Origin: Malacoraja senta
Lineage: Eukaryota
Length of the DNA stretch: 64,000 nucleotides
Reading direction: 5' to 3'
Assembly (NCBI GenBank): GCA_038087875.1
Contig: CM075987.1
Location: forward strand, 16,928,001-16,992,000
The position numbers and the translations under genes are program-made. Within the stretch, counting starts at the first letter, position 1. Each line of letters starts with the position of its first letter. The notes below the pieces were generated by a model. The model saw only the letters and a list, made by a program, of their open reading frames with translations, was not told where the DNA came from and did no database searches. Below are positions 1-53,905 of this stretch, one piece after another.

Positions 1-137
1 ATGTTCCCCCGTAAACAGAACACCTCCCATTTCCTGAGATGAGAGATGTACTGCTTTTTGGTACTATCCCTCCAGGCCGCTGTTATCACATCCACGGTAC
101 GATCGGATAGTCCAAGACCCAGGTATGGCCTCCTCAG
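1..137 (-). CDS. N-terminus of DIRS tyrosine recombinase ORF (partial, not in ORF track)
   Basis: Manual translation LRRPYLGLGLSDRTVDVITAAWRDSTKKQYISHLRKWEVFCLRGN resembles the start of the DIRS YR core-binding domain and overlaps the end of the MT ORF. Confidence 0.7.
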   Translation of the reverse strand, partial: MRRPYLGLGLSDRTVDVITAAWRDSTKKQYISHLRKWEVFCLRGN

Positions 138-918: not shown

Positions 919-933
919 AACAACTGAAGGTTC

Positions 934-2134: not shown

Positions 2135-2191
2135 ATTGAATGGCCGGCTTGGTCCTTGTACGGACCCGGTTTCAGCAAACCGCTTGTAGGG

Positions 2192-3271: not shown

Positions 3272-3849
3272 GAATTCCCATGCGCAGAAAACGACCTCCG
3301 ACTAAGTTTTACACTTACCTGCGGCTTTTTTAACTTACCGCTGGAGGAGCGATGCACCTCCCAGCCAGTCGCTGCGCCATGCGTCAGACGTAATGACGCG
3401 CATGCGGACTGGCGGGACTTCTTCACGGAATCACTCACGTGACTCCGAAGTAAAATCTCCTATGTGGGACCTTATCAAATGCTTTCTGAAAGTCCAGGTA
3501 CACTACATCCACTGGCTCTCCCTTGTCCATTTTCCGAGTTACATCCTCAAAAAATTCCAGAAGATTAGTCAAGCATGATTTCCCCTTCATAAATCCATGC
3601 TGACTCGGACCGATCCTGTTACTGCTATCCAAATGCGTCGCTATTTCATCTTTTATAATTGACTCCAGCATCTTCCCCACCACCAGGCTAATTGGTCAGT
3701 AATTTCCTGTTTTCTCTCTCCCGCCTTTCTTAAAAAGTGGGATAACATTAGCTATCCTCCAATCCACATTAGCTACCCTCCGATCCTGAATCTATAGAAC
3801 ATTGGAAAATGATCACCAATGCATCTACTATTTCTGGAGCCACCTCCTT

Positions 3850-6800: not shown

Positions 6801-7273
6801 ATTCCTGGGATGTCAGGACTTTCATATGAAGAAAGACTGGATAGACTCGGCTTATACTTGCTAGAATTTAGGAGATTGAGAGGGGATCTTATAGAAACTT
6901 ACAAGATTCTTATGGGGTTGGACAGGCTAGATGCAGGAAGATTGTTCCCGATGTTGGGGAAGTCCAGGACAAGGGGTCACAGGTTAAGGATAAGGGGGAA
7001 ATCCTTTAAGACTGAGATGAGAAAAAACTTTTTCACACAGAGAGTGGTGAATCTCTGGAACTCTCTGCCACAGAGGGTAGTTGAGGCCAGTTCATTGGCT
7101 ATATTTAAGAGGGTGTTAGATGTGGCCCTTGTGGCTAAAGGGATCAGGGGGTATGGAGAGAAGGCAGGTACGGGATACTGAGTTGGATGATCAGCCATGA
7201 TCATATTGAATGGCGGTGCAGGCTCGAAGGGCCGAATGGCCTACTCCTGCACCTATTTTCTATGTATCTATGT
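3850..7273 (+). mobile_element. CR1 LINE 'A', 5'-truncated (end of ORF1 + complete ORF2 APE-EN/RT + 3' tail); inactivated by a stop at 5767-5769 and an insertion at 6488-6581
   Basis: APE motifs 'ITETWL', 'GDFN' and 'SDH'. RT motifs '[10 protein letters not shown]' and 'FADD'. Short-repeat tail ttctatgtatctatgt. Confidence 0.95.
6488..6581 (-). mobile_element. 94-bp Penelope-terminal-repeat-derived insertion with 13-bp TSD
   Basis: TSD ttgaaagtaggca at 6475-6487 and 6582-6594. The empty site is present in the duplicated copy near 22935-22950. Confidence 0.85.
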
Positions 7274-9489
7274 AAGTACCCTGGGATGCAGACCATCAGG
7301 CCCTGGGGATTTATCAGCCTTCAGTCCCATCAGTCTATCCAACACCATTTCCTGCCTAATGTGGATTTCCTTCAGTTCCTCCGTCACCCCAGATCCTCTG
7401 GCCACTACTATATCAGGAAGATTGTTTGTGTCCTCCTTTGTGAAGACGGATCCAAAGTACCTGTTCAACTCATCTGCCATTTCCTTGTTCCCCATAATAA
7501 ATTCACCTGTCTTCAAGGGACCCACATTTGTCTTAACTATTGTTTACCTCTTCACATACCTAAAGAAGCTTTTACTATCCTCCTTTATATTCTTGGCTAG
7601 CTTACCTTCGTACCTTATCTTTTCTCCCCTTATTGCCTTTTTAGTTATTTTCTGTTGCTCTTTAAAAGTTTCCCAATCCTCTGGCTTCCCGCTCATCTTT
7701 GCTATGTTATACTTCTTCTCTTTTATTTTTATACTGTCCCTGACTTCCCTTGTCAGCCACAGTTGCCTCTTACTCCCCTTAGAATCCTTCTTCCTCTTTG
7801 GAATTAACTGATCCTGCACCTTCTGTATTATTCCCAGAAATACCTGCCATTGTTGTTCCACTGTCATCCCTGCTAGGGTCTCTTTCCAGTCAACTTTGGC
7901 CAGCTCCTCCCTCATGGCTTCATAGTCCCCTTTGCTCAACTGTAATACCGACACTTGCGATGTTTCCTTCTCCCTCTCACTCATTTGCCAGCTTTCTCAC
8001 TCCTACTACAATTAGTCTGAAGAAGGGTCCTGACACCAAAACCTATCCTACCCATGGCCAAAAGCCTGGCAAATGATAGGTGGATACAGGTGAGGGAGGT
8101 TTGATTGGCAGATAGGTGGACAAAGTCAGCAGATGAAGAGAAGACAAAAGGGTGACATAAGGAGAGGAGAGGAGTCACATATCCATGCTCTCCAGCGATG
8201 CTGCCTGGCCCGCTGAGTTCCTACAGCACTCTGTGTGTGGACAATATTAGATGCATTGGGTGTGGACAGGGCACCCCTGGGCCATTTTCTTCTTGCCGAA
8301 TGAGTGCTGGTGTTGTAACTGTGCTGGAACAGCTTGGCTCGAGGCATGGCCGTCTGAAGTTGAGACTGTTGTCTGGTCCCATAGTCACTGCTGGATTCAA
8401 TACCAGGTCCCAATATTATGTGAAGCAAATCTATAATGGTGGGATATATCTGTGATGGTGGCGATCCCAAAAAGAATCTGGGGTCAATGTTTTATTTTTA
8501 ACATGAATATAAAAGCTTCAATAAAAATAGAAGCATTGCAAATGTTCCTCAGCTCAGCAACAGTTGTGGAGACGATGATCTTCCAGCATATCCAGAAGTT
8601 CAAAAAGATCAAGTTTTAAGATGAAAGCAAGAGATGGTGTCGAGGGAACAAAGGGAAGGCCAATGACAAGGTGGACTAAGAAAGACTAAATTATGCAAAT
8701 ATCAGTGCTGTCAGGGTAGTGAAGACTCATGACCTACAGATTACTAATTAAATTCACGACAGGGCTTAGATGGCAGGGCCCTGGAGGATATTGTGAAACA
8801 GAGACACCTAGGGGTATGGATTTCTCTGAATGTGGCGACACAACTGGACAGGGTGGTGACAAAGGCACACTTGCCTCCATCGGTCAGGACACTGATAAAA
8901 GCGTTGGGACGTCATGATACAACTGTACAAGGCATTGTTGACATTACAGGGTTGGAGCTACACAGCACTGAAACAGTGCTGATCTAGTCCTAGGACATTG
9001 GGAGGGGATGAGCCTTTTGGGACCAGTGACCACTATCAGGTTTAAGATACTTATGGATATAGACAAGGCGGGCCCACGAGTTACAATTCTAAATTGGGGC
9101 AAGGCCAACTTTGAAGTTATTCGACAGGAACTCACTCAAGTTGATTGGAGCAGGTCTTCTGAAGGAAAAGGAGCGTCAGGAAAGTGGGATGTTTGTTTAA
9201 AAGTGTGACAAGAGTTCAGGGCATGCATGTCCCTGTTAGAGTGAAAGGCAAAGCAGGTGGGCATATGGAGGCTTGGATAAGGAGAGAAATTGAGGCTCTG
9301 GCCAAGAATAAATAGGAGGCATGGGACAGATTCAGGCCGCTGGGTTTTTGTATCCCTGGAGGAGTTTCGGGGAAAAAAGAAGCACATTTAAAAAAGGAAA
9401 TCAGGAGGAAAACAAGGAGATTGCTCTGGCAGATAATATTAAAGATAATCCCAAAAAATGCTATGAACACATTAAGGGAAAAAGAGAAG

Positions 9490-10078
9490 GTGAACACAAA
9501 ATGCTTGAGTAACTTCACGGGACAGTCAGCATCTCTGGATAGAAGTAAGTAGTCATGTTTCGGGTCAAAACCCTTCAGACTGAGAGTCAGGGTGGAGGAA
9601 GACACGGATATAAGGAAGGGAAACGTGTGAAAACGAAACATCAAAAGAGATAGAGCTCAAGGAAAATGTAGAATAGATCATTGTTAGCTAGGAGAAGGTG
9701 AAAACAAAGCAAACAGAGACAAAATGTAGTCGGGGTCAGTCCGACTGGTCGGAGAACTAGGATGGGCGAGGGATGGAGAGAGAGGGAAAGCAAGGGTTAC
9801 TTTAAGTTAGAGAAGTCAGTATTCTACTGCTGGGGTGTAAGCTGCCCAAGCGAAAGATGAGGTGCTGTTCCTCCAATTTACGCTGGGCATCACTCTGAAT
9901 GGAGGAAGCCCAAGGCAGAAAGGTCGGTGTGGGAATGGGAGGGGGAGTTTAAGTGTTTAGCAACCGGCAGATTAGGTAGGTTTAGGCAGGCTGAGCAGAG
10001 GTGTTCAGCGAAACGATCACCGAGCCTGCGCTTGGACTCACCGATATACAAGAGTCCACACCTGGAACAGCAGGAATC
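9490..10078 (-). mobile_element. Penelope-like element 3' fragment (GIY-YIG endonuclease + terminal repeat)
   Basis: 'CSRCGLLYIGESKRRLGDRFAEH…PVAKHLNSPSH…QRKLEEQHLIFRLGSL' is a PLE GIY-YIG domain, followed by terminal-repeat sequence with a degenerate hammerhead core. Confidence 0.85.
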
Positions 10079-10109
10079 AAAGCGGTCGACTATGAGGTTT
10101 AAGATAGTT

Positions 10110-13100
10110 ATAGAAACATAGAAACATAGAAAATAGGTGCAGGAGTAGGCTATTCGGCCCTTCGAGTCTGCACCGCCATTCAATATGATCATGGCTGATC
10201 ATCCAACTCAGTATCCTGTACCTGCTTTCTCTCCATACCCCCTGATCCCTTTAGCCACAAGGGCCACATCTAACTCCCTCTTAAATATAGCCAATGAACT
10301 GGCCTCAACTACCTTCTGTGGCAGAGAATTCCAGAGATTCACCACTCTCTGTGTGAAAAATGTTTTCCTCATCTCGGTCCTAAAAGATTTCCCCCTTATC
10401 CTTAAACTGTGACCCCTTGTTATGGACCTCCCCAACATCGGGAACAATCTTCCTGCATCTAGCCTGTCCAACCCCTTAAGAATTTTGTACGTTTCTATAA
10501 GATCCCCCCTCAATCTTCTAAATTCTAGCGAGTACAAACCGAGTCTATCCAGTCTTTCTTCATATGAAAGTCCTGACATCCCAGGAATCAGTCTGGTGAA
10601 CCTTCTCTGTACTCCCTCTATGGCAAGAATGTCTTTCCTCAGATTAGGAGACCAAAACTGTACGCAATACTCCAGGTGTGGTCTCACCAAGACCCTGTAC
10701 AACTGCAGTAGAACCTCCCTGCTCCTATACTCAAATCCTTTTGCTATGAATGCTAACATACCATTCGCCTTCTTCACTGCCTGCTGCACCTGCATGCCTA
10801 CTGTTAATGACTGGTGTACCATGACACCCAGGTCTCGTTTCATCTCCCCTTTTCCTAATCGGTCACCATTCAGATAATAGTCTACTTTCCTGTTTTGCCA
10901 CCAAAGTGGATAACCTCACATTTATCCACATTATACTGCATCTGCCATGCATTTGCCCACTCACCCAGCCTATCCAAGTCACCTTGCAGCCTCCGAGCAT
11001 CCTCCTCACAGCTAATACTGCCCCCCAGCTTCGTGTCATCCGCAAACTTTGAGATGTTGCATTCAATTCCCTCGTCCAAATCATTAATATATATGGTAAA
11101 TAGCTGGGGTCCCAGCACTGAGCCTTGCGGTACCCCACTAGTCACTGCCTGCCATTCTGAAAAGAACCCGTTAACTCCTACTCTTTGCTTCCTGTCTGCC
11201 AGCAGTTCTCTATCCACATCAATACTGAACCCCCAATACCGTGTGCTTTAAGTTTGTATACTAATCTCTTATGTGGGACTTTGTCGAAAGCCTTCTGAAA
11301 GTCCAGATATAACACATCCACTGGTTCTCCCCTATCCACTCTACTAGTTACATCCTCGAAAAATTCTATAAGATTCGTCAGACATGATTTACCTTTCGTA
11401 AATCCATGCTGACTTTGTCCAATGATTTCACCACTTTCCAAATGTGCTGCTATCCCATCTTTAATAACTGACTCTAGCAGTTTCCCCACTACCGATGTTA
11501 GACTAACTGGTCTGTAATTCCCCGTTTTCTCTCTCCCTCCCTTCTTAAAAAGTGGGGTTACTTTTGCTACCCTACAATCCTCAGGAACTACTCCAGAATC
11601 TAAAGAGTTTTGAAAAATTATCACTAATGCATCCACTATTTCTGGGGCTACTTCCTTAAGTACTCTGGGATGCAGCCTATCTGGCCCTGGGGATTTATCG
11701 GCCTTTAATCCATTCAATTTACCTAACACCACTTCCCGGCTAACCTGGATTTCACTCAGTTCCTCCATCTCATTGGACCCCCGGTCCCCTGCTATTTCCG
11801 GCAAATTATTTATGTCTTCCTTAGTGAAGACAGAACCAAAGTAGTTATTCAATTGGTCTGCCATGTCCTTGTTCCCCATGATCAATTCACCTGTTTCTGA
11901 CTGCAAGGGACCTACATTTGTTTTAACTAATCCTTTGCTCTTCACATATCTATAAAAGCTTTTGCAGTCAGTTTTTATGTTCCCTGCCAGTTTTCTTTCA
12001 TAATCTATTTTCCCTTTCCTAATTAAGCCCTTTGTCCTCCTCTGCTGGACTCTGAATTTCTCCCAGTCCTCGGGGAGGCTGCCTTTTCTGGCTAATTTGT
12101 ACGCTTCATCTTTTGTTTTGATACTATCTCTGATTTCCTTGTTATCCATGGATGCACTACCTTCCCTGATTATTTTTTTTTGCCAAACTGGGATGAACAA
12201 TTGTTGTATTTCATCCATGCAGTCTTTAAATGCCTTCCATTGCATATCTACCGTCAACCCATTAAGAATCAATTGCCAGTCTATCTTGGCCAATTCACTT
12301 CTCATACCCTCAAAGTTACCTTTCTTTAAGTTCAGGAACCTTGTTTCTGAATTAACAATGTCACTCTCCATCCTAATGAAGAACTCAACCATATTATGGT
12401 CACTCTTGCCCAAGGGACCACGCACAACAAGACTGCTAACTAACCCTTCCTCATTACTCAATACCCAATCTAGAATAGCCTGCTCTCTCGTTGGTTCCTC
12501 TACATGTTGGTTTAGAAAACTATCCCGCATACATTCCAAGAAATCCTCTTCCTCAGCACCCTTGCCAATTTGATTCACCCAACCTATATGTAGATTGAAG
12601 TCACCCATTATAACTGTTTTACCTTTGTTGCACGCATTTCTAATTTCCTGTTTGATGCCATCCCCAACTCCACTACTACTGTTAGGTGGCCTGTACACAA
12701 CTCCCACTAGTGTTTTCTGCCCCTTAGTGTTTCGCAGCTCTACCCATATTTGAGTATAGGAGCAGGGAGGTTCTACTGCAGTTGTACAGGGTCTTGGTGA
12801 GACCACACCTGGAGTATTGCGTACAGTTTTGGTCTCCAAATCTGAGGAAGGACATTATAGCCATAGAGGGAGTGCAGAGAAGGTTCACCAGACTGATTCC
12901 TGGGATGTCAGGACTTTCATATGAAGAAAGACTGGATAGACTTGGCTTATACTCGCTAGAATTTAGGAGATTGAGAGGGGATCTTATAGAAACGTACAAA
13001 ATTCTTATGGGGTTGGACAGGCTAGATGCAGGAAGATTGTTCCCGATGTTGGGGAAGTCCAGGACAAGGGGTCACAGCTTAAGGATAAGGGGGAAATCCT

Positions 13101-16465: not shown

Positions 16466-19418
16466 CCTTCAAAGACCCTATCCATAACAAGCGAGTGGAT
16501 GACCTCAGGTTTGACCTCGACAAGTCCTACAGTAAGATTGTTACACCTAAGGTACTGGAAGAGAGAAGGTGGGAGACAGTGAGAAAGGGAGGGAAGCATG
16601 GAATGAAAACGTCCCCGGGTGTTGTACCTCTTGTGAACAGGTTCGCCCACTTAGAAGCTGTCGGGACAGAAGACGTTTTAACACTGAGCGGCAGACTGGC
16701 TTGCGATGCGAATAGGGCTGTTGAGCCAAAACCAAAAAGGCCAAAGTCAGGCAACGCCATTGTAGTGGGAGACTCCATTGTGAGAGGTACGGACAGGGGT
16801 TTCTGCGGCAACAGACGGGATTCGAGGATGGTGTGCTGCCTTCCTGGTGCCAGGATCCAGGATGTCACGGACAGAGTGCAGAAAATCCTCAAGGGCGAAG
16901 GTGAACAGCCGGAACTGGTAGTGCATGTCGGCACAAACCATGTCGGAAAGAAGGGGATGAATATTCTGCAGTGTGAGTTTAGAGAGCTCGGAAAAATGCT
17001 GAAAAGCAGGACCTCCAAGGTTGTTATCTCCGGTTTGCTTCCAGTTCCTCGTGCTGGCGAGAGCAGGAACAGGGAGATACGGGACCTGAATGTGTGGCTG
17101 AGGAACTGGTGCACGGGGATGAGTTGAATGTGCAGATAGCTATTAATGACTATGATATAGTTGGGATCACGGAGACATGGCTCCAGAGTAACCAAGGCTG
17201 GGAGCTGAACATCCAGGGATATTCAATATTCAGGAGGGATAGACAGAAAGGGAAAGGAGGTGGGGTAGTGTTGCTGGTTAGAGAGCAGATTAACGCAATA
17301 GAAATGAAGGACATTAGCTTGGAGGATGTGGAATCGATATGGGTAGAGCTGCGAAACACTGAGGGGCAGAAAACACTAGTGGGAGTTGTGTACAGGCCAC
17401 CTAACAGTAGTAGTGGAGTTGGGGATGGCATCAAACAGGAAATTAGAAATGCGTGCAACAAAGGTAAAACAGTTATAATGGGTGACTTCAATCTACATAT
17501 AGGTTGGGTGAATCAAATTGGCAAGGGTGCTGAGGAAGAGGATTTCTTGGAATGTATGCGGGATAGTTTTCTAAACCAACATGTAGAGGAACCAACGAGA
17601 GAGCAGGCTATTCTAGATTGGGTATTGAGTAATGAGGAAGGGTTAGTTAGCAGTCTTGTTGTGCGTGGTCCCTTGGGCAAGAGTGACCATAATATGGTTG
17701 AGTTCTTCATTAGGATGGAGAGTGACATTGTTAATTCAGAAACAAGGTTCCTGAACTTAAAGAAAGGTAACTTTGAGGGTATGAGAAGTGAATTGGCCAA
17801 GATAGACTGGCAATTGATTCTTAATGGGTTGACGGTAGATATGCAATGGAAGGCATTTAAAGACTGCATGGATGAAATACAACAATTGTTCATCCCAGTT
17901 TGGCAAAAAAAATAATCAGGGAAGGTAGTGCATCCATGGATAACGAGGGAAATCAGAGATAGTATCAAAACAAAAGATGAAGCGTACAAATTAGCCAGAA
18001 AAGGCAGCCTACCAGAGGACTGGGAGAAATTCAGAGTCCAGCAGAGGAGGACAAAGGGCTTAATTAGGAAAGGGAAAATAGATTATGAAAGAAAACTGGC
18101 AGGGAACATAAAAACTGACTGCAAAAGCTTTTATAGATATGTGAAGAGCAAAGGATTAGTTAAAACAAATGTAGGTCCCTTGCAGTCAGAAACAGGTGAA
18201 TTGATCATGGGGAACAAGGACATGGCAGACCAATTGAATAACTACTTTGGTTCTGTCTTCACTAAGGAAGACATAAATAATTTGCCGGAAATAGCAGGGG
18301 ACCGGGGGTCAAATGAGATGGAGGAACTGAGTGAAATCCAGGTTAGCCGGGAAGTGGTGTTAGGTAAATTGAATGGATTAAAGGCCGATAAATCCCCAGG
18401 GCCAGATAGGCTGCATCCCAGAGTACTTAAGGAAGTAGCCCCAGAAATAGTGGATGCATTAGTGATAATTTTTCAAAACTCTTTAGATTCTGGAGTAGTT
18501 CCTGAGGATTGTAGGGTAGCAAAAGTAACCCCACTTTTTAAGAAGGGAGGGAGAGAGAAAACAGGGAATTACAGACCAGTTAGTCTAACATCGGTAGTGG
18601 GGAAACTGCTAGAGTCAGTTATTAAAGATGGGATAGCAGCACATTTGGAAAGTGGTGAAATCATTGGACAAAGTCAGCATGGATTTACGAAAGGTAAATC
18701 ATGTCTGACGAATCTTATAGAATTTTTCGAGGATGTAACTAGTAGAGTGGATAGGGGAGAACCAGTGGATGTGTTATATCTGGACTTTCAGAAGGCTTTC
18801 GACAAAGTCCCACATAAGAGATTAGTATACAAACTTAAAGCACACGGTATTGGGGGTTCAGTATTGCTGCCTTGAGTTGCTGCCTTAAAGCACCACAGAC
18901 CCAGATTTGATCCTGACTATGGGTGCTGTCTGTACAGAATTTGTACATTCTCCCTATGACTTTCATATGAAGAAAGACTGGATAGACTCGGTTTGTACTC
19001 GCTAGAATTTAGAAGATTGAGGGGGGATCTTATAGAAACGTACAAAATTCTTAAGGGGTTGGACAGGCTAGATGCAGGAAGATTGTTCCCGATGTTGGGG
19101 AAGTCCATAACAAGGGGTCACAGTTTAAGGATAAGGGGGAAATCTTTTAGGACCGAGATGAGGAAAACATTTTTCACACAGAGAGTGGTGAATCTCTGGA
19201 ATTCTCTGCCACAGAAGGTAGTTGAGGCCAGTTCACTGGCTATATTTAAGAGGGAGTTAGATGTGGCCCTTGTGGCTAAAGGGATCAGGGGGTATGGAGA
19301 GAAAGCAGGTACAGGATACTGAGTTGGATGAGCAGCCATGATCATATTGAATGGCGGTGCAGACTTGAAGGGCCGAATAGCCTACTCCTGCACCTATTTT
19401 CTATGTTTCTATGTTTCT
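16465..19418 (+). mobile_element. CR1-B duplicate with longer ORF1, a 414-bp deletion of the ORF1/ORF2 junction and a 647-bp RT deletion
   Basis: Direct comparison with 10110-14456. Confidence 0.92.
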
Positions 19419-19451
19419 ATAACTATCTTAAACCTCATAGTCGACCGCTTT

Positions 19452-20040
19452 GATTCCTGCTGTTCCAGGTGTGGACTCTTGTATATCGGTGAGTCCAAGC
19501 GCAGGCTCGGTGATCGTTTCGCTGAACACCTCTGCTCAGCCTGCCTAAACCTACCTAATCTGCCGGTTGCTAAACACTTAAACTCCCCCTCCCATTCCCA
19601 CACCGACCTTTCTGCCTTGGGCTTCCTCCATTCAGAGTGATGCCCAGCGTAAATTGGAGGAACAGCACCTCATCTTTCGCTTGGGCAGCTTACACCCCAG
19701 CAGTAGAATACTGACTTCTCTAACTTAAAGTAACCCTTGCTTTCCCTCTCTCTCCATCCCTCGCCCATCCTAGTTCTCCGACCAGTCGGACTGACCCCGA
19801 CTACATTTTGTCTCTGTTTGCTTTGTTTTCACCTTCTCCTAGCTAACAATGATCTATTCTACATTTTCCTTGAGCTCTATCTCTTTTGATGTTTCGTTTT
19901 CACACGTTTCCCTTCCTTATATCCGTGTCTTCCTCCACCCTGACTCTCAGTCTGAAGGGTTTTGACCCGAAACATGACTACTTACTTCTATCCAGAGATG
20001 CTGACTGTCCCGTGAAGTTACTCAAGCATTTTGTGTTCAC
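19452..20040 (+). mobile_element. Duplicate Penelope-like GIY-YIG fragment (right arm)
   Basis: Mirror of 9490-10078. Confidence 0.85.
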
Positions 20041-21549
20041 CTTCTCTTTTTCCCTTAATGTGTTCATAGCATTTTTTGGGATTATCTTTAATATTATCTG
20101 CCAGAGCAATCTCCTTGTTTTCCTCCTGATTTCCTTTTTTAAATGTGCTTCTTTTTTCCCCGAAACTCCTCCAGGGATACAAAAACCCAGCGGCCTGAAT
20201 CTGTCCCATGCCTCCTATTTATTCTTGGCCAGAGCCTCAATTTCTCTCCTTATCCAAGCCTCCATATGCCCACCTGCTTTGCCTTTCACTCTAACAGGGA
20301 CATGCATGCCCTGAACTCTTGTCACACTTTTAAACAAACATCCCACTTTCCTGACGCTCCTTTTCCTTCAGAAGACCTGCTCCAATCAACTTGAGTGAGT
20401 TCCTGTCGAATAACTTCAAAGTTGGCCTTGCCCCAATTTAGAATTGTAACTCGTGGGCCCGCCTTGTCTATATCCATAAGTATCTTAAACCTGATAGTGG
20501 TCACTGGTCCCAAAAGGCTCATCCCCTCCCAATGTCCTAGGACTAGATCAGCACTGTTTCAGTGCTGTGTAGCTCCAACCCTGTAATGTCAACAATGCCT
20601 TGTACAGTTGTATCATGACGTCCCAACGCTTTTATCAGTGTCCTGACCGATGGAGGCAAGTGTGCCTTTGTCACCACCCTGTCCAGTTGTGTCGCCACAT
20701 TCAGAGAAATCCATACCCCTAGGTGTCTCTGTTTCACAATATCCTCCAGGGCCCTGCCATCTAAGCCCTGTCGTGAATTTAATTAGTAATCTGTAGGTCA
20801 TGAGTCTTCACTACCCTGACAGCACTGATATTTGCATAATTTAGTCTTTCTTAGTCCACCTTGTCATTGGCCTTCCCTTTGTTCCCTCGACACCATCTCT
20901 TGCTTTCATCTTAAAACTTGATCTTTTTGAACTTCTGGATATGCTGGAAGATCATCGTCTCCACAACTGTTGCTGAGCTGAGGAACATTTGCAATGCTTC
21001 TATTTTTATTGAAGCTTTTATATTCATGTTAAAAATAAAACATTGACCCCAGATTCTTTTTGGGATCGCCACCATCACAGATATATCCCACCATTATAGA
21101 TTTGCTTCACATAATATTGGGACCTGGTATTGAATCCAGCAGTGACTATGGGACCAGACAACAGTCTCAACTTCAGACGGCCATGCCTCGAGCCAAGCTG
21201 TTCCAGCACAGTTACAACACCAGCACTCATTCGGCAAGAAGAAAATGGCCCAGGGGTGCCCTGTCCACACCCAATGCATCTAATATTGTCCACACACAGA
21301 GTGCTGTAGGAACTCAGCGGGCCAGGCAGCATCGCTGGAGAGCATGGATATGTGACTCCTCTCCTCTCCTTATGTCACCCTTTTGTCTTCTCTTCATCTG
21401 CTGACTTTGTCCACCTATCTGCCAATCAAACCTCCCTCACCTGTATCCACCTATCATTTGCCAGGCTTTTGGCCATGGGTAGGATAGGTTTTGGTGTCAG
21501 GACCCTTCTTCAGACTAATTGTAGTAGGAGTGAGAAAGCTGGCAAATGA

Positions 21550-23480
21550 GTGAGAGGGAGAAGGAAACATCGCAAGTGTCGGTATTACAGTTGAGCAAAG
21601 GGGACTATGAAGCCATGAGGGAGGAGCTGGCCAAAGTTGACTGGAAAGAGACCCTAGCAGGGATGACAGTGGAACAACAATGGCAGGTATTTCTGGGAAT
21701 AATACAGAAGGTGCAGGATCAGTTAATTCCAAAGAGGAAGAAGGATTCTAAGGGGAGTAAGAGGCAACTGTGGCTGACAAGGGAAGTCAGGGACAGTATA
21801 AAAATAAAAGAGAAGAAGTATAACATAGCAAAGATGAGCGGGAAGCCAGAGGATTGGGAAACTTTTAAAGAGCAACAGAAAATAACTAAAAAGGCAATAA
21901 GGGGAGAAAAGATAAGGTACGAAGGTAAGCTAGCCAAGAATATAAAGGAGGATAGTAAAAGCTTCTTTAGGTATGTGAAGAGGTAAACAATAGTTAAGAC
22001 AAATGTGGGTCCCTTGAAGACAGGTGAATTTATTATGGGGAACAAGGAAATGGCAGATGAGTTGAACAGGTACTTTGGATCCGTCTTCACAAAGGAGGAC
22101 ACAAACAATCTTCCTGATATAGTAGTGGCCAGAGGATCTGGGGTGACGGAGGAACTGAAGGAAATCCACATTAGGCAGGAAATGGTGTTGGATAGACTGA
22201 TGGGACTGAAGGCTGATAAATCCCCAGGGCCTGATGGTCTGCATCCCAGGGTACTTACATAGATACATAGAAAATAGGTGCAGGAGTAGGCCATTCGGCC
22301 CTTCGAGCCTGCACCGCCATTCAATATGATCATGGCTGATCATCCAACTCAGTATCCCGTACCTGCCTTCTCTCCATACCCCCTGATCCCTTTAGCCACA
22401 AGGGCCACATCTAACACCCTCTTAAATATAGCCAATGAACTGGCCTCAACTACCCTCTGTGGCAGAGAGTTCCAGAGATTCACCACTCTCTGTGTGAAAA
22501 AGTTTTTTCTCATCTCAGTCTTAAAGGATTTCCCCCTTATCCTTAACCTGTGACCCCTTGTCCTGGACTTCCCCAACATCGGGAACAATCTTCCTGCATC
22601 TAGCCTGTCCAACCCCATAAGAATCTTGTAAGTTTCTATAAGATCCCCTCTCAATCTCCTAAATTCTAGCAAGTATAAGCCGAGTCTATCCAGTCTTTCT
22701 TCATATGAAAGTCCTGACATCCCAGGAATCAGTCTGGTGAACCTTCTCTGCACTCCCGCTATGGCTATAATGTCCTTCCTCAGATTTGGAGACCAAAACT
22801 GTACGCAATACTCCAGGTGTGGTCTCACCAAGACCCTGTACAACTGCAGTAGAACCTCCCAGCTCCTATACTCAAATCCTTTTGGTATGAAAGCTAACAT
22901 ACCATTCGCTTTCTTCACTGCCTGCTGCACCTGCATGCCTACTTTCAATGACTGGTGTACCATGACACCCAGGTCTCGCTGCATCTCCCCTTTTCCTAAT
23001 CGGCCACCATTTAGATAATAGTCTGCTTTCCTGTTTTTGCCACCAAAGTGGATAACCTCACATTTATCCATATTATACTGCATCTGCCAAACATTTGCCC
23101 ACTCACCCAGCCTATCTAAGTCACCTTGCAGTCCCCTAGCATCCTCCTCACAGCTAACACTGCCCCCCAGCTTAGTGTCATCCGCAAACTTGGAGATGTT
23201 GCCTTCAATTCCCTCATCCAGTTCATTAATATAAATTGTAAATAGCTGGGGTCCCAGCACTGAGCCTTGCGGTACCCCACTAGTCACTGCCGGCCATTGT
23301 GAAAAGAACCCATTTACTCCTACTCTTTGCTTCCTGTTTGCCAGCCAGTTCTCTATCCACATCAATACTGAACCCCCAATACCGTGTGCTTTAAGTTTGT
23401 ATATTAATCTCTTATGTGGGACCTTGTCGAAAACCTTCTGAAAGTCCAGATACAACACATCCACTGGTTCTCCCCTATCC
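21550..23480. mobile_element. Duplicates of the host CR1 (21550-22256, +) and the CR1-A 3' half (22257-23480, -)
   Basis: Mirror of 5943-7980. Uninterrupted RT C-terminal frame from ~23480 to 22349. Confidence 0.92.
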
Positions 23481-24864: not shown

Positions 24865-25111
24865 TGGCAGCATTCGATGTAGAATGGTCCTCCATGGCAG
24901 CATTCGATGTAGAATGGTCCTCCGTGGCAGCATTCGATGTAGAATGGTCCTCCATGGCAGCATTCGATGTAGAATGGTCCTCCGTGGCAGCATTCGATGT
25001 AGAATGGTCCTCCGTGGCAGCATTCGATGTAGAATGGTCCTCCGTGGCAGCATTCGATGTAGAATGGTCCTCCGTGGCAGCATTCGATGTAGAATGGTCC
25101 TCCATGGCAGC
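24865..25111. repeat. 30-bp minisatellite, 8 copies: tggcagcattcgatgtagaatggtcctcc(a/g)
   Basis: Perfect tandem copies differing only at one A/G position. Confidence 0.98.
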
Positions 25112-25989
25112 TGGTCTGTCGTTCAGACTGCTGACTGAAGTAAGGTTGAAGTTGTAAAACCCCAGCCAAAGCATCCATTACAGGTGGGATCAATGCTGCA
25201 GGCTAGAAGTGTGTGAATTTTACACTCCGGCTTGGAAAATGCTGGTAACTGCAGACCATGCTTTAGACTAAGTCAGAGGCAAGGAACTTGCTCAAGACCA
25301 TAATCTGGGACAAAGTAAATTACCACTTCAAAAAAACAAATCACAACCTATAGATGACACAAGAAACTACAGATGCTGGTTTACAAAAAAAGACACAGGG
25401 CTGGAGTAACTCACGGGTCAGGCCGCATCTTTGGAGAACGTGCAGAGGTGATGTTTCGGACCCCCTTCACCTGCATCTACATGTCACTGATCAGGATTTG
25501 TCCTGTCCTTCCTTTACATAGGTTTAAGGTGAAGGGGAAAGATTATACTCATTGACCTGACCAATGAAGACGGGCATGCGATATGCCTTCTTTACCACTA
25601 TCTACACACTGATCCAGTCTCTTCACTGCTTTCTCCACAATGCTTCTTGCATTGAAATAAATACCCTGCAGCCCATCAGTTTAACCATATTCCTTCACCT
25701 CTCACTGCCTGTCCTTCCTTTGAGATTTACTTGCACTATCTATTAGAGGTTATGGAGAGAAGACAGGAGAACGGGGTTAGGAGGTAAAGATAGATCATGA
25801 TTGAATGGCAGAGTAGACTTGATGGGCTGAATGGCCTAATTCCATTCCTATCCCTTATGACCTTCCCATCAGTCCATAAGATTTAGTAAGCAGAATTAGG
25901 CCTATCAGCCCACCTTGACATTCCTAGTCAAGAACCTACTAATCTCTGCATCCACAGCTGTCTGTGGCCTTTCATTTTGCTGCTACTCT

Positions 25990-27910: not shown

Positions 27911-28309
27911 GCAAGAGGCTGCTGGGTGCTAGAAACAAGATGTCCAGGCTATTGGAGGGATATGGATCACGTGCGAGCAGATGAGATTAGTTTAACGCCG
28001 TATGTTCGACAGAGATATTGTAAGCCCGAAGGGCCTGTTCCTGTTGTGTACTGTTCTATAAATAGGATTGGAAAAGTTGGAGTTCTTGTTCGATGAAAAA
28101 TTATTGGCAAAGTTTAAATTGAAAATGCCTGGCAAAATGTGTAAAATTATCAACAGCAGTAAAGGGAAACAGAGTCAATTTGGAGAGTGTATCATTCTGG
28201 AATAGCTGTAGGAGAGCATGGTGAGGCAGAGTTTGTGGGATTATTTTAAAAAGAACTAAAACAAAAAAATTATGACAAACAGAAATGTATTCTAGCGCAA
28301 ATATGACAA

Positions 28310-28585
28310 ATTGCTGGAGTAACCCAGCAGGTCAAGCAGCATCTTTGGACAACATGGATAGGTGATAGGTGACATCTTGGGACAGGACCCTTCTTCACAC
28401 TGACCTGAGCTAAAACATCACCTATCCGTGTTCTCCACAGATGCTGCCTGACCCGCTGAGTTACTCCAGCACTCTGTGAAACATCACCTATCCTTGTTCT
28501 CCAGAGATGTTGCCTGACCCGCTGAGTTACTCCAGCACCTGTGTCTTCTTTTGTAAGCCAGCATCTGCAGTTCCTTGTTTTCATA
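28310..28585. repeat. Cluster of Penelope-terminal-repeat-derived units (one inverted, two tandem)
   Basis: Repeated aaacatcacctatcc…gatg(c/t)tgcctgacccgctgagttactccagcac. Confidence 0.75.
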
Positions 28586-42031: not shown

Positions 42032-43047
42032 GAACTTGGGACAGTTAATGGCATTGTCTTGAGAGCAGTCAGTATTACGGTCGAGGAGGTGCTGCTGAAG
42101 GTCCTACGCGTATGATGGTAGAGAAATCTCCCAGGCCTGATCATATATATTCAAAGACACTGGGGAAACAAAATCAAAAATTGCAGGTGTCCTGGTTGAG
42201 AGTTACAGGTGAGGTGCCCGAAGCCTTTAGGGTGGTGAATATTGTGCCAAGGAAAAGCCTGGGAAGTATAGGCCAGTCAGTCTAACATCTGTGCTCTGAA
42301 AGTTACCAGAAAGTATTGTGAGGGATAAGATATACATGTACGTAGTTAGATGGGCAAGGGCCGATTAGGGATAGTCAACACGGTTTTATATGTGGGAAAT
42401 TGTATCTCATGAATACAGATTTTTGAAGATATGACCTTGATGTGGGAAAAGATGTAGACGTTGTATATAATGATTTCAGCGGCTTTTTGTCAAGGTACCG
42501 CATGGAAGGTTAGATCGCATGAGATCCATTACGAGCTTGCCAACTGGATGGAAAATTGGCTTCATGGAAGGAAGCAGAGGGTGATGGTGGAAGGTTGTTT
42601 TTCAGACTTGAAGCCAGGGACTAGTGGTATCAGGATTCAGTGCTGGAAAAGAATGTACAAGGCATGATTGGTAAGTTTGCAGATGGCACTAAAGCGGGTA
42701 GTATTGTAGATAGTGAAGATGGTTGTCAAAAATTGTAGCAGGTGTTTGATTGGCTGGGCAGGTGGGCTGAAGAATGGTTGATGGAATTTAATACAGTAAA
42801 GTGTAGGGTGTTGTATTTTGGGAAGACTGACTAGGGCAGGACCTACACAGTGAACGGTCGGGCTCTGGGGAATGTTGTAGAGCAGAGGGATCTAGGGGTG
42901 TAGATACATAGTTCCTTGAAAATGACGTCACAGGTCGATAGGGTGGTCAAGAAGGCTTTTGGCACATTGGCCTTCGGCAGCATGAGTATAGAACTTGGGA
43001 GGTCATGTCATAGTTGTACAGGAATTGGTGAGGTCACATTCAGAGTA

Positions 43048-43297
43048 TTTTAGGTAGACAAAAATGCTGGAGAAACAATAGACAATAGACAATAGGTGCA
43101 GGAGTAGGCCATTCGGCCCTTCGAGCCAGCACCGCCATAGGTAACGTTTCGAGTCGAAACCCTTCTTCAGACTGAAGAAGGGTATCGACCCGAAACGTTG
43201 CCTATTTCCTTCACTCCATTGATGCTGCCTCACCCACTGAGTTTCTCCAGCATTTTTGTCTACCTTCGATTTTCCAGCATCTACAGTTCCTTCTTAA
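43048..43297. mobile_element. Palindromic Penelope-derived element with back-to-back hammerhead cores and 12-bp TSD
   Basis: TSD acattcagagta (43036-43047, 43298-43309). Cores at 43143-43170 (-) and 43172-43199 (+). Confidence 0.75.
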
Positions 43298-44717
43298 ACA
43301 TTCAGAGTAATGTGTTCAGTTTTGGACACACTGTTATAGGAAATACGTTGTTAAACTTGAAAGGGTGCAGAGATTTACGAGGATATTGCTGGGACTCGAG
43401 GGCCTGAGCTATAGGGAGAGGTTGAACAGGGTAGGACTTTATTACTTGGAGTGCTGGAGAATGAGCGGTGATCCCAAAGATCAGGATAGGATTAGATAGG
43501 GTAGATGCAGTCTTCTACCCAGAGAAGGGGAGTCAAGATCCAGAGGACATAGGTTTATGGTGAAGGAGAACATTTTAATAGGAACAGAAGGGGTGGTGGG
43601 TGTCAGAGGAGGTAGTTGAGGCAGCTACTATCATAACGTTTAAAAAACATTTGGACAGGTACATTGATAGGACAGGTTTGGTGAGACATGGTTCAAACAC
43701 AGGTAGGAATAGTATAATCCTATTGGTGGGGCCTGTTGGTTGACATAGGCATGTTACTCTGAAGAGCCTGTTTCCATGCTGTATGACAATGAATCTAAAT
43801 CAATTTGAGTCCAATCTACCCAGTCACCATGGGTCCCATGTGCCTTAAGTAAGTAATGTGTTGATAAATGAGTAACCTGTTTCGGCAAAAAATAACAATG
43901 TGCTGTGGAGGCTGAAAATCCAGATTGAAACAGGAAGATCAGGATATTTCTGCTGGTCGGGGAGCATCCGTGGAGAAAAAAAGCTGTTTTCATGTTTCAA
44001 GTCACTGACCTTTCTGTAGAATCCATGAAAATTCTGTTAATTTGCAGCTTTGTTGTATTACCAACCATTCCAGATGAAGTCATTGATTTCCAGACTTGAA
44101 ATAACCCATCTTCTTCTCGAACAGTTCTTCTGGCAACAATTCAATGTCTGCTCGAAAGGGTTGGGATGGCCGTGATTCTGTGTAATCTGAATGGTTATGA
44201 ATTGACATAGTTCACATGGCTATGGAGGAATATGGATTAGAGTCATGCAGAACGGAAACGCCATTTGGATGAGCATGCCCATGCCGATCAAGATGCCCCA
44301 TCCACACTAGTTCACCCACCCGCGTTTGGCTGATGTTCCTCTGAACTTTTCCTATCCATGTACCCATCCAAATATCTTTTACATTTTATTATAGTATCTG
44401 CCTCAACTACCTCCCCTGGCAGCTCGTTCCATATATCCACCACCCTCTGTGTGAAAAAGTTGCACCGTAAATCTTTCCCCTCTCACATTAAATCTAAGTT
44501 CTCTGGTTCTTGATTCCCCTACTCTGGGTAAAAGATTGTGTGCATCTACCCTATCTAGTCTCCACATGATCTCATACACCTCTGTAAGATCATCCTTCAT
44601 CCTCATATCAAAAATTCTAAAGGGCATGTTCCTGTGCTGTACTGTTCTGTGAATATAAAGACCACGTGAGTCTGTGAGATGTGACAAAGGACCAGTAAAG
44701 AAAAGTATACAACTTCT

Positions 44718-49248: not shown

Positions 49249-50089
49249 CCGCATTGATGAGCTGGAGACCCAACTTCATACGCTGCGGTGCATCAGGGAG
49301 GGGGAGTATTACCTGGATGTTTTGTGCCAGGGGATGGTCACACCGACCAGTTTAACTAATTCAGTAGTTAGTGAGCAGGGAAAGGAAGGTGTGGCCATAA
49401 GCGAGGCAGGTAGGGGGAACCAGGAGGAGATGCGGCAGGAGCCACAGCCCTTGTCCCTGACGAGCATGACCGAGGCTCTTACTCAATGCGAGGACGGGAT
49501 CAAGGGCTGTGGGAGGGATGAGCAACCTGGCTGCAGCACCGTGGATCAGGGGGCCATTCAAGAGGGGGGAGTTAGAAGAAATGCCGTTGTGATAGGGGAT
49601 AGTATTATTCGGGGGGTAGATAAGGTTCTCTGCGGCCAGCAGAACATGTCCCGAAGGCTGTGTTGCCTACCCGGTGCTAGGGTTAAGGATATCTCTGCGA
49701 TGCTGGAGAGAAATTTGCAGAGTGAGGGGGAGGATCCAGTGGTCGTGGTCCATGTGGGGACCAATGACATAGGAAGGACGAGGAAGGAGGATCTGCTGAA
49801 CGAGTTTGAGCAGTTAGGGAATAAATTAAAAAGCAGAACCTCGAGGGTACTGATCTCCGGATTGCTACCTGAGCCACGGGCCAAATCGGCGAGGGTACAA
49901 AAAATTAAAAAGCTGAATGCGTGGCTCAAAGACTGGTGTGGGAAAAATGGGTTTGGTTTCTTGGGCCACTGGCACCAGTACTGGGACAGGGGGGATCTGT
50001 TCTGTAAGGACGGACTTCACCTGAACGGTGCTGGGACTGGGGTCCTGGCAAATCATATAACTAGGGCAGTAGAGAGGTCTTTAAACTAA
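49249..50089 (+). CDS. CR1 ORF1 (partial; coiled coil + SGNH esterase domain)
   Basis: 'VIGDSIIR', 'CLPGA', 'HVGTNDI' and 'DGLHLN'. No internal stops. Confidence 0.88.
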
Positions 50090-50178
50090 GTAGCGGGGGG
50101 GAGGTATCAAGGGGGGTAATAACGGCAGGGGTAGAGGAAATAGAGCAGGGTATCAGTGGGGAAACGGAAAATCAAAAT

Positions 50179-53073
50179 GTGACAGGAGGATCCAGAATGT
50201 GTGAAGATAAAGCTCTAGATGTAAAAGGGGCAAAAACAGAAAGGAAGGGTAGTAAAAATCATCTGAAAGTACTGTATCTAAATGCACGGAGTATTCGAAA
50301 TAAGATAAATGAATTAACGGTGCAATTAAGTACATATAGTTATGATATCGTGGCCATTACGGAGACATGGCTGCAAGGGGATCAGGATTGGGAGTTAAAT
50401 ATAGAGGGGTACTCGACAATTAGAAAAGATAGACAGGAAAGAAAGGGAGGAGGGGTGGCCCTTTTAATAAGGGAGGGAATAACGGCAATAGAGAGGAAGG
50501 ATATTGCGTTGAAGGATCAGGATAGTGAAACAGCTTGGATACAGATAGAGAATAACAAGGGGAAAAAAACACTAGTGGGTGTAATTTATAGACCTCCAAA
50601 TAGCTGTGACGCTGTTAGTCAGAACATAAATCTGCAAATAGTTGACGCATGTAAAAAGGGAACTGCTGTAATCATGGGGGACTTCAATTTTCATATTAAT
50701 TGGGCAAACCAAACTGGGCAGGGTAGACTAGAGGAAGAGTTTATAGAATGTATTAGAGACGGGTTCCTAGAACAGTATGTCACAGAACCGACAAGGGGGG
50801 AGGCAATCTTGGATCTGGTCCTGTGTAATGAAGCAGGATTAATTAAAAATGTCATAGTTAGGGACTCGTTGGGAACAAGTGACCACAATATGGTCGAATT
50901 CCATATTCAAATAGAAGGGGAGCAGGTTGAAACTCAGGCTAGGGTACTTAGTCTAAATAAGGGGGATTATGAAGGTATGAGGACTGAGCTGATCAAAGTT
51001 GACTGGGATAGCAGACTCAAGAATAAGACGGTACATGAGCAGTGGTGTACGTTTAAGGATCTACTGTATAACCTTCAAGAAAAATTTATTCCTATGAAGA
51101 AAAAAAGGGGTAAGGGAAAGAACAGTCAGCCATGGCTCAGTAAAACTATAAAGGATAGTATTCGGCTGAAGGCAAGGGCATATAAGGTAGCTAGAGATAG
51201 TGGGAGGGTAGAGGATTGGGAAGCATTTAAAGGTCAGCAAAAAATAACTAAGAGATTAATTAAGACGGGGAAAATAGACTATGAAAGGAATTTAGCGAAC
51301 AACATAAAAACTAATAGTAAGAGTTTTTATAGCTATATAAAAAGAAAAAGGGTGGCTAAGGTGAACGTTGGTCCATTGGAGGGTGAGACTGGAGAGTTGT
51401 TGGTGGGGAACATGGAAATGGCAAAGGCATTAAACGAGTATTTTGTATCAGTCTTCACCATAGAAGACACAAAAAATATTCCAACGCTGGATAAACAGGG
51501 GGCGGTAGGAATGGAGGAGCTAAATACTATTAAGATCACCAAGGAGGTGGTATTAGGGAAATTAATGAGACTGAAGGAGGATAAATCCCCTGGGCCTGAT
51601 GGATTACATCCAAGGGTCTTGAGGGAGATAGCGGTGGGGATTGTGGATGCATTGGTGATAATTTTCCAAAACTCCCTGGAGGCAGGAACGGTCCCAGTGG
51701 ATTGGAAAATGGCCAATGTAACACCTATATTTAAAAAAGGAAGTAAACAGAAGGCGGGTAACTATAGACCGGTTAGTCTAACATCGGTGGTGGGTAAAAT
51801 GTTAGAGACAATTATTAAAGAAACACTAACGGGGCACTTGGATAAACATGACTTCATCGGACAGAACCAGCATGGTTTTGTGAAGGGGAAGTCCTGTTTA
51901 ACGAATCTGCTCGAATTCTTTGAGGAAGTAACAACCCGGGTGGATAAAGGGGAACCGGTGGATGTGGTATACTTGGACTTCCAAAAGGCTTTTGACAAGG
52001 TGCCACATAAGAGACTATTGCTAAAAATAAAAAATTATGGGATTGGGGGTAATATATTAGCATGGGTAGAGGATTGGCTAACAAATAGGAAGCAGAGAGT
52101 GGGGATAAATGGTTCATACTCGGGATGGCAACCGGTAACTAGCGGGGTTCCGCAAGGGTCGGTGCTGGGACCCCAGTTGTTCACAATTTATATAAATGAT
52201 TTGGAGGAGGGAACCAAGTGTAATATATCAAAATTTGCGGACGATACAAAAATGGGAGGAAAAGTAGGGGATGAGGAGGATAGGAAGAGTCTGCAAAAGG
52301 ATATAGATAAGCTAGGTGAGTGGGCAACAACTTGGCAGATGAAATTTAATACTAATAAATGTGAAGTCATTCACTTTGGGAAAAAAAATGATAGGGCAAG
52401 TTATTTTCTAAATGAGGTGGAGCTGCGTTGTAATGCAATGCAAAGGGATCTAGGGGTAGTAGTACATGAATCACTAAAAGTTAGTATGCAGGTGCAGCAA
52501 GCAATCAGGAAGGCCAATGGAGTTTTGGCCTTTATTGCTAGGGGGATTGAGTATAAAAACACGGAGGTCTTGCTGCAGCTGTACACAGTATTAGTGAGAC
52601 CACATTTGGAATACTGTGTACAGTTCTGGGGTCCATACTTAAGAAAGGATGTACTGGCCCTGGAGGCAGTGCAGCGAAGGTTTACAAGATTAATTCCTGC
52701 AATGAGGGGATTGACATATGAGGAAAGGTTAAGTAGGCTGGAACTCTACTCTTTGGAGTTTAGAAGAATGAGAGGCGATCTCATTGAAACATATAAGATC
52801 GTGAGGGGCCTTGATCGGGTGGATGCACCGAGGATGTTCCCAATGATCGGGGAAACTAGAACTAGGGGACATAGTTGTAGAATAAGAGGGGGCTCTTTTA
52901 AAACTGAGATGAGGAACAACTTCTTCACCCAGAGGGTGGTTAATTTATGGAATTCACTGCCCCAGGGAGCAGTGGAAGCAGAAACATTAAATATATTTAA
53001 GTCTAAAATAGATGTTTTTTTAGCTGCCAAGGGGATAAGGGGCTACGGGGAGAGGGCAGGGATATGGACCTAG
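50179..53073 (+). CDS. CR1 ORF2 APE endonuclease / reverse transcriptase, 964 aa, uninterrupted (frame open from 50065)
   Basis: 'YLNARS', 'ITETWL', 'YRPP', 'GDFN', 'SDH', 'NYRPVSLTS', 'DFQKAFD', '[10 protein letters not shown]' and 'FADD'. Confidence 0.96.
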   Translation: MTGGSRMCEDKALDVKGAKTERKGSKNHLKVLYLNARSIRNKINELTVQLSTYSYDIVAITETWLQGDQDWELNIEGYSTIRKDRQERKGGGVALLIREGITAIERKDIALKDQDSETAWIQIENNKGKKTLVGVIYRPPNSCDAVSQNINLQIVDACKKGTAVIMGDFNFHINWANQTGQGRLEEEFIECIRDGFLEQYVTEPTRGEAILDLVLCNEAGLIKNVIVRDSLGTSDHNMVEFHIQIEGEQVETQARVLSLNKGDYEGMRTELIKVDWDSRLKNKTVHEQWCTFKDLLYNLQEKFIPMKKKRGKGKNSQPWLSKTIKDSIRLKARAYKVARDSGRVEDWEAFKGQQKITKRLIKTGKIDYERNLANNIKTNSKSFYSYIKRKRVAKVNVGPLEGETGELLVGNMEMAKALNEYFVSVFTIEDTKNIPTLDKQGAVGMEELNTIKITKEVVLGKLMRLKEDKSPGPDGLHPRVLREIAVGIVDALVIIFQNSLEAGTVPVDWKMANVTPIFKKGSKQKAGNYRPVSLTSVVGKMLETIIKETLTGHLDKHDFIGQNQHGFVKGKSCLTNLLEFFEEVTTRVDKGEPVDVVYLDFQKAFDKVPHKRLLLKIKNYGIGGNILAWVEDWLTNRKQRVGINGSYSGWQPVTSGVPQGSVLGPQLFTIYINDLEEGTKCNISKFADDTKMGGKVGDEEDRKSLQKDIDKLGEWATTWQMKFNTNKCEVIHFGKKNDRASYFLNEVELRCNAMQRDLGVVVHESLKVSMQVQQAIRKANGVLAFIARGIEYKNTEVLLQLYTVLVRPHLEYCVQFWGPYLRKDVLALEAVQRRFTRLIPAMRGLTYEERLSRLELYSLEFRRMRGDLIETYKIVRGLDRVDAPRMFPMIGETRTRGHSCRIRGGSFKTEMRNNFFTQRVVNLWNSLPQGAVEAETLNIFKSKIDVFLAAKGIRGYGERAGIWT

Positions 53074-53733
53074 GTATGGTTAGTATAGTAAGACCTGAGT
53101 GATCTCCTGGACAAGTGTCGATCGCCTGGATTGGGGTCGGAGAGGAATTTCCCGGATTTTTTTCCCGAATTGGACCTGGGTTTTTATCCGGTTTTTTGCC
53201 TCCCCCAGGAGATCACACGGTTCTTGGGGTGGAGAGGGGTGATAGCGATATAAAGGGGAGGGTAGTGTCTTGTGTTCTGTGTCTTGTGTCTACTGTTTGT
53301 GGGTAAGGGTGTCTGTTTAGTGTTCAGCCATGAGCGAATGGCGGTGCGGGCTCGATGGGCCTAGTGGTCTACTCTCGCACCTACTTTCTATGTTTCTATG
53401 CTATGAGGATGCAGGGTGACTTGGACAGGTTGGGTTAGTGGGCAGATGCATGGCAGATGTAGTTTAATGTGGATAAATGTGAGGTTATCCACTTTGGTGG
53501 CAAAAACAGGAAGGTAGATTATTATCTAAATAGTCAAGTTGGGAAAAGGGGAAGTACAATGTGATCTGGGGGTCCTTGTTCATCAGTCAATGAAAGTAAG
53601 CATGCAGGTACAGCAGGCAGTGAAGAAAGCGAATGGGATGTTGGCCTTTATAACAAGAGGAGTTGAGTATAGGAGCAAAGAGGTCCTTCTGCAGTTGTAC
53701 AGAGCCGTAGTGAGACCACACCTGGAATATTGT

Positions 53734-53905
53734 TTAAGAAGGAACTGCAGATGCTGGAAAAATCGAAGGTAGACAAAAATGCTGGAGAAACTCAGCGGGT
53801 GAGGCAGCATCTATGGAGCGATGGAATAGGTGATGGTTCAGGTCGAGACCCTTCGCTCCATAGATGCTGCCTCACCGGCTGAGTTTCTCCAGCATTTTTG
53901 TCTAC
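53734..53905. mobile_element. Palindromic Penelope-derived insertion with 13-bp TSD
   Basis: TSD cctgga(a/g)tattgt at 53721-53733 and 53906-53918. Internal inverted repeat gtagacaaaaatgctggagaaactcagc…gctgagtttctccagcatttttgtctac. Confidence 0.8.

Follow-up and report, generated by a model that had tools for sequence, protein, structure and literature searches.

A palindromic insert with hammerhead cores on both strands in Malacoraja senta is very probably a truncated inverted Penelope-like insertion with a passenger ribozyme motif

A short palindromic insert in Malacoraja senta (GCA_038087875.1, contig CM075987.1, positions 16,928,001 to 16,992,000; this stretch of 64,000 nucleotides, analysed as a whole, is called the window below) carries a hammerhead core on each strand, which raises the question whether ribozymes made the insert or were simply carried along in it. 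The original prediction took it for a distinct, ribozyme-processed hairpin retroelement. The sequence quoted there was located at 43140-43200, and the palindrome, the core on each strand and the 12-bp TSD were all borne out by the sequence. Each strand reads CUGAAGA-A-4-bp stem II-GAAAC-GUU, and stem III, ACGU, is palindromic. A loose core pattern matched the window 4 times against 1.08 expected, a number reached or exceeded in 2 of 100 shuffles, and all 4 matches lay in copies of one family with a 129-nt unit.

When the unit was numbered from hammerhead C3 at 43172 as position 1, giving a full unit of 1-129, the insert proved to consist of two pLTR pieces placed head-to-head, each from the 3' end of a Penelope-like element (PLE), one with and one without a 35-nt tail. 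The right, direct arm on the plus strand covers the whole of unit 1-129, with unit 1-94 at 43172-43265 (a core at 43172-43199 whose cut is predicted at 43199/43200, with stem I absent) and the 35-nt tail, unit 95-129, at 43266-43300. The tail is confined to this arm, and the 3' end of the element at 43300 overlaps the TSD by 3 nt. The left arm, inverted on the minus strand, stops before the tail and holds unit 1-34 and 70-94. Its inner part (unit 1-34, 43137-43170; core 43170-43143, predicted cut 43143/43142, stem I of 2 bp) mirrors 43172-43205 over 34 nt with 3 mismatches around a 1-nt centre, while its outer part (unit 70-94, 43052-43076) is complementary to 43241-43265 at 25 of 25 positions and ends at the 3' endpoint that lacks the tail. 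This perfect outer repeat was absent from the original prediction, as were the one-sided tail, the loss of stem I and the overlap of the element's end with the TSD. The arms meet at TCAG-A-CTGA (43167-43175, centre 43171), matching the TCAG-T-CTGA that is native upstream of the core; the native form was found at 19947-19955 after a pyrimidine tract, and also in a loose end of the RNA run behind 43175. Cores are present on both strands because the inverted duplication copies one motif twice.

The inverted arm is interrupted by a 60-nt LINE 3' tail (43077-43136), likewise absent from the original prediction, which substitutes for 35 nt of the arm and was annotated as a secondary insertion of a 5'-truncated LINE on the minus strand (43077-43138, with 43137-43138 common to the arm). 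There were 16 other copies of this tail in the window, most of them running on into LINE sequence, and it was also found after the end of a LINE ORF2 at 7139-7271. Its source is an endonuclease-RT LINE, to which we would give a CR1-type label. In three DNA contig runs, contigs departing at 43138 led into LINE sequence and those departing at 43137 into an uninterrupted arm, indicating that the 250-nt unit is a composite of the 43k locus and not the family consensus. The LINE tail was inserted later than the arms or concurrently with them, and we infer a later arrival; no copy of the 43k locus lacking it was seen. On LINE target-site truncation, nothing was found in the open-licence literature.

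The insert is flanked by a direct repeat on the plus strand (43036-43047 and 43298-43309), which is 12 nt long and exact, or 14 nt (left copy 43036-43049) with one mismatch tolerated. Of 3000 random intervals of the same length, 0 had an exact flank repeat of at least 12 nt. The two flanks aligned, their ends overlapping, to a single other LINE copy, in support of a genuine TSD, and the majority letter at 43310 in related LINE copies is T, as in the left TSD copy. No empty allele of the locus was present among the joints listed. The host is a decayed LINE ORF2 on the plus strand (42506-43550), 40-47% identical in tblastn to an intact LINE ORF at 50065-53070, of which amino acids 654-829 align to the left of the insertion and amino acids 847-936 to its right. 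The intact copy is an unbroken 1002-aa LINE ORF2 frame (50065-53073, plus strand) with endonuclease and RT in Pfam and a 285-aa ORF ahead of it, and is possibly young. The inserts at 43036-43049 and 53721-53733 lie in the same LINE ORF2 motif, independently and in opposite orientation, and the family copies at 6.5k and 48.7k likewise lie within LINE ORF2. This shared location could stem from the sheer number of LINEs or from preferential cutting, and the two same-motif cases (43k and 53.7k) were not counted as target specificity.

The link to a parent element came from a related PLE 3' remnant elsewhere in the window (19461-20050, plus strand; duplicate at 9480-10069, minus strand), which comprises a GIY-YIG C-terminus, a pyrimidine-rich spacer and a copy of unit 6-102. 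The GIY-YIG part (19461-19724, duplicate at 9806-10069) is frameshifted, and the unit copy, 74% identical and with a damaged core, lies about 230 nt downstream of it, so that the unit can be placed as the 3' end of a PLE pLTR family. A pLTR 3' of a GIY-YIG ORF was found for this relative, not for the identical subfamily; with just 74% identity over unit 6-102 in the copy linked to the ORF, the window did not show the exact parent subfamily. Pfam scored the window's own GIY-YIG remnant weakly (E 0.11, with no match for the second piece), and its identity was taken from homologues, which made up 4 of 25 candidates (three ray proteins and one RT + GIY-YIG protein), rather than from this score. 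The closest proteins came from rays: the remnant was 54-57% identical to ray proteins with PLE architecture, and for the three ray homologues (named as Mobula hypostoma and Hypanus sabinus) the identity was 64-70%. An RT was present in homologues of the endonuclease remnant (P0006) and nowhere else, a search for an RT remnant giving no match within the window. The ray relatives carry a Cys cluster ahead of the endonuclease, which suggests a Neptune/Nematis type by the criterion given in part of PMC8557442. Two inverted duplications were observed in this region, one of 3991 nt at 99.9% identity (6582-10572 and 18958-22948) that contains the GIY-YIG remnant pair, and one of 1531 nt at 99.5% identity (11220-12749 and 17337-18866); they represent a recent rearrangement or an assembly artefact.

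To compare the insert with the rest of its family, a profile from 8 window copies was used, which gave 23 arms and, after removal of 2 segmental duplicates, 21 counted arms; the counts cover one 64-kb window, 8 of the 21 arms seeded the profile, and the profile is unable to report arm starts upstream of unit 1. The results showed that 13 of the 21 arms start at unit 1-7 and none at the predicted cleavage site, unit 29, the nearest starts being at 26, 21 and 36. The TSD survey proposed with the original prediction was run within the window: a TSD of 12-15 nt with at most 1 mismatch flanked 5 of the 10 loci tested, and 5 had none. Solo direct copies with a TSD were found at 6.5k and 34.6k, and palindromes at five loci (28.3k, 32.7k, 43k, 45.8k and 53.7k). 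In all three TSD-flanked palindromes (32.7k, 43k and 53.7k) one arm ends at unit 93-95 and the other at 129, the two 3' ends seen in window copies. The junction joins unit 1/1 at 43k with centre A (43171), unit 1/1 at 45.8k with centre T (45890), unit 1 and about 87 through a short spacer at 32.7k, unit 37/6 through a 5-nt overlap (53850-53854) at 53.7k, and about unit -4/15 at 28.4k, and contigs of related species added further junction positions; the centre lies at or beside C3 in three of the five loci. As the junctions differ in all five palindromic loci, the mirror was probably built at each insertion and not copied from a hairpin master. The claim of a distinct ribozyme-processed element was therefore not supported, with junctions varying at 5 loci and 0 of 21 arms starting at the cut site.

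Further features of the family were recorded. At least two window copies, at 19.9k and 8.0k, extend into upstream pyrimidine-rich sequence, as do RNA reads behind 43175. At 7960-8240 the core is followed by about 130 nt of G-rich sequence, which may be inverted upstream pLTR, and then by the remaining unit, and at 28306-28579 an inverted arm precedes two direct arms in tandem, a small-scale version of the partial-tandem plus inverted arrangement known from PLEs. The summed contig depth fell to about one third beyond 43267 in the three runs, a depth that is no copy number and to which a T-run indel may contribute. Pattern scans gave 0 further family copies in metagenomes, 0 in prokaryote genomes and 0 in viral contigs; the sole match of the second metagenome pattern (locus L001) was rejected, its flanks appearing unrelated over 400 nt.

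We next considered the competence of the hammerheads, which had been predicted to cleave in either polarity. Both cores retain every core letter tested, and the features of a minimal type I hammerhead (core boxes, stem II, an extra base after A9 and a palindromic stem III) are present on both strands. Naming this a PLE-type minimal hammerhead with a palindromic ACGU stem III was apt, as it fits the definition in part of PMC4209133, which lists core boxes, an extra base after A9, G10.1-C11.1, a palindromic 15.2-16.2 and no loop. Stem I has 0 bp on the plus and 2 bp on the minus strand, short of the 4-5 bp expected of a PLE minimal helix I; because the junction immediately precedes C3, the other arm takes the place of the 5' strand of stem I. 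In folding calculations, opening the hairpin to form a core carried a penalty of 32-40 kcal/mol, and stem II within the hairpin had a probability of 5e-13 or less; the probability was also low (0.01-0.05) in copies without an inverted arm, which makes folding a poor guide to activity. For two molecules together, the best fold (-107.3 kcal/mol) was lower than twice the hairpin (-48.1 each), and the ACGU dimer helix gave -1.7. The published PLE ribozyme is protein-assisted.

Rfam models, those for hammerheads included, had no match across the whole window, and a local Rfam scan returned miRNA-type hairpins and weak unrelated matches, all below the gathering score. The core varied less among copies, with 3 of 67 against 78 of 630 at other positions in 8 copies, and this difference was not significant (p = 0.068, some seed rows being trimmed within the core). 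Covariation in stem II and stem I did not exceed that of shuffles, and no compensatory stem II change occurred among 10 rows. No sharp RNA ends, the expected mark of cleavage, were seen in one poly(A) run from a related organism with 6 in 100 of the run covered, a weak test with a library unsuited to circles. The RNA run contained family-wide reads from both strands, which do not represent locus-specific expression, and the reads ahead of 43172 were mixed (703 reads, agreement 0.37). With stem I lost and the core locked in the hairpin, the 43k copy is most likely without cleavage, and its hammerhead would be a passenger motif of the parent pLTR.

The anatomy was then set beside known systems, as far as parts of the published texts describe them. 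PLE insertions typically combine an inverted copy truncated at its 5' side with palindromes at the junction, a TSD and, on one of the two ends, a tail of 30-40 bp (PMC8557442 and PMC3846280); a tail of this length is also given in PMC11167929. The 43k insert resembles EN+ PLE inserts in its head-to-head truncated copies, junction palindrome, one-sided tail and TSD, and in the GIY-YIG ORF upstream in its relative, whereas it has no ORF of its own, a TSD of 12-14 bp against the 8-10 bp of the rotifer cases described there, and a LINE tail in one arm. The protein of PAc (Poseidon, Anolis carolinensis) is described in part of PMC11167929 as cutting and extending both strands, with a pair of internal RT start sites marking the limits of the tail and insertion needing no hammerhead cleavage. 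The 43k insert likewise has two 3' endpoints that define a tail, roughly 95 and 130 nt past the hammerhead, and activity on both strands fits the inverted form, although PAc is a Poseidon element, whereas the Cys cluster of the ray relatives suggests Neptune/Nematis. According to sections of PMC4209133, motif pairs lie on opposite strands 100-700 bp apart, most single motifs come from truncated PLEs, and the activity of minimal PLE hammerheads is low even as dimers; the 43k motifs differ in a 4-bp stem II, a stem I lost at the junction and a spacing of 1 nt. Non-LTR retrozymes are also non-coding, pLTR-related and provided with a type I hammerhead, and are reported from one chondrichthyan genome (parts of PMC7229834 and bioRxiv 10.64898/2026.07.22.740005). 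The latter, in its excerpted text, requires two head-to-tail units with complete ribozymes and reports cleavage in 1 of 9 dimers tested. In contrast to such head-to-tail tandems with a complete ribozyme per unit, the two arms of the 43k insert are inverted, their ribozymes are incomplete, and their ends are the tail endpoints of PLEs.

All these results indicate that the 43k insert is no retrozyme but a truncated, inverted PLE insertion in which the ribozyme motif is a passenger. We consider it very probable that it is a dead, heavily 5'-truncated insertion of an endonuclease-containing (EN+) Penelope-like retrotransposon. Counting against this account are, among other points, the unseen parent subfamily, the lack of an empty allele among the joints listed, the 5 of 10 loci without a TSD and the origin of the counts in one window. 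Mobilisation by PLE proteins, as the original prediction held, is most likely, and the tail endpoints, TSD and GIY-YIG-linked relative agree with it.

From the composition, endpoints, TSD, junction diversity and ORF link observed above, we infer a mechanism of staggered nicks, one cDNA per nick and joining by microhomology. The PLE protein would nick both strands about 12-14 bp apart, and reverse transcription would run from each nick, starting at internal sites at unit 129 and unit 94. Both cDNAs would end near the start of the hammerhead core and join by annealing through the self-complementary TCAG-T-CTGA, and gap filling would then generate the TSD. For the joining of two cDNAs, taken alone, the balance tips slightly in favour. 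Since cDNAs ending at TCAG-T-CTGA pair at 8 of 9 positions, such joining would explain a fixed centre with A or T. Candidate reasons for a cDNA stop at TCAGT are an initiator, a 3' splice site or capture by the palindrome. The initiator consensus is TCAKTY. An Inr-like TCACT is described in a rotifer pLTR (part of PMC3846280), and a D. virilis intron is stated to end at helix I (part of PMC4209133). We tentatively suggest that TCAG-T-CTGA might be a built-in joining site: the template RNA would have its 5' end there, at an initiator or at a 3' splice site following the pyrimidine tract, two cDNAs from opposite nicks would stop and anneal, and the central mismatch would be settled in favour of one strand or the other, giving A at 43171 and T at 45890. 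If true, this would amount to a sequence-level rule for the formation of PLE inverted repeats, readable in very many ray and skate copies.

Other sources of the same structure were weighed against this reading. The 129-nt unit could be a dedicated non-autonomous, pLTR-derived, SINE-like unit with its own transcript from TCAGT and PLE proteins acting in trans; palindromes would still be built at insertion, giving the same anatomy from a different source RNA. A short non-autonomous master RNA would suit the 13 of 21 arms that start at unit 1-7 and the mixed reads before 43172 (703 reads, agreement 0.37), and parts of the literature report an Inr-like TCACT in a rotifer pLTR and state that pLTRs suffice for mobilisation in trans (PMC3846280) and that vertebrates have pLTR-derived non-autonomous families (bioRxiv 10.64898/2026.07.22.740005). 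We nevertheless regard it as doubtful, though possible: copies 19.9k and 8.0k and the RNA reads behind 43175 continue upstream, an autonomous mRNA should likewise yield short copies from its 5' pLTR, as RT can start internally (part of PMC11167929), and the template RNA is not readable from a single insert. Rather unlikely, in our estimate, is fold-back self-priming, in which one cDNA or antisense RNA is primed on itself at TCAG-T-CTGA and copied back into the inverted arm. The palindrome centre is indeed a tiny hairpin, and PMC3846280, in part, explains PLE junction palindromes by self-priming on an antisense template; however, the 53.7k junction joins different unit positions through a 5-nt overlap, and the copied-back arm ends at unit 93-95 in 3 of 3 TSD cases, as does solo copy 6.5k, which points to independent priming. 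A 1-nt hairpin loop is moreover sterically poor, which counts against self-priming.

Very little probability remains for the original proposal of a retrozyme-like hairpin that propagates itself, with hammerheads processing its RNA of either polarity. Cores intact in all tested letters, three of five palindrome centres at or beside C3, and a core that varies less than its surroundings (3/67 against 78/630, p = 0.068) would agree with it, but junctions and centre letters vary among loci, the stem I of 0 or 2 bp and the 32-40 kcal/mol for opening the hairpin speak against cleavage (as does the stem II probability of at most 5e-13), and on both strands the complement is transcribed ahead of the core. 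Furthermore, the cut site is the starting point of 0 of 21 arms and the ends are PLE tail endpoints, no compensatory stem II change was found among 10 rows, and no sharp RNA end was seen in what is a weak test. The insert accordingly does not qualify as a retrozyme: the cores are inverted, not tandem, the ribozymes are incomplete, and the unit ends are not set by ribozyme cleavage. The chance of a MITE-like DNA transposon with terminal inverted repeats is close to nil, for although the insert has a TSD and, close to its ends, a perfect inverted repeat of 25 bp, the right-hand repeat is not terminal but followed by the 35-nt tail, solo one-arm copies have a TSD, TSD length varies between 12 and 15 nt, and a GIY-YIG ORF is linked to the family.

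With the PLE insertion as the preferred reading, the single 43k locus is an ordinary dead repeat. The formation of PLE inverted repeats is described as unresolved in part of PMC8557442, and the inserts of this family, being short, abundant and TSD-flanked, preserve within some 220 nt the junction together with the two 3' start sites. They also call for caution, as a palindrome with a hammerhead on each strand merely holds the same motif in duplicate, and inserts of this sort may be mistaken for MITEs or miRNA hairpins. Among shark and skate PLE palindromes, this family was not found described in the open-licence literature, and it may already be catalogued in Repbase or Dfam. Two other repeats of the window were observed: ORFs at 134-3301 (minus strand) resemble what we take to be a DIRS-type retrotransposon, with gag-like, RT, RNase H and methyltransferase-like parts, and a short tandem repeat at 24900-25180 gives rise to a repetitive open frame on the minus strand.
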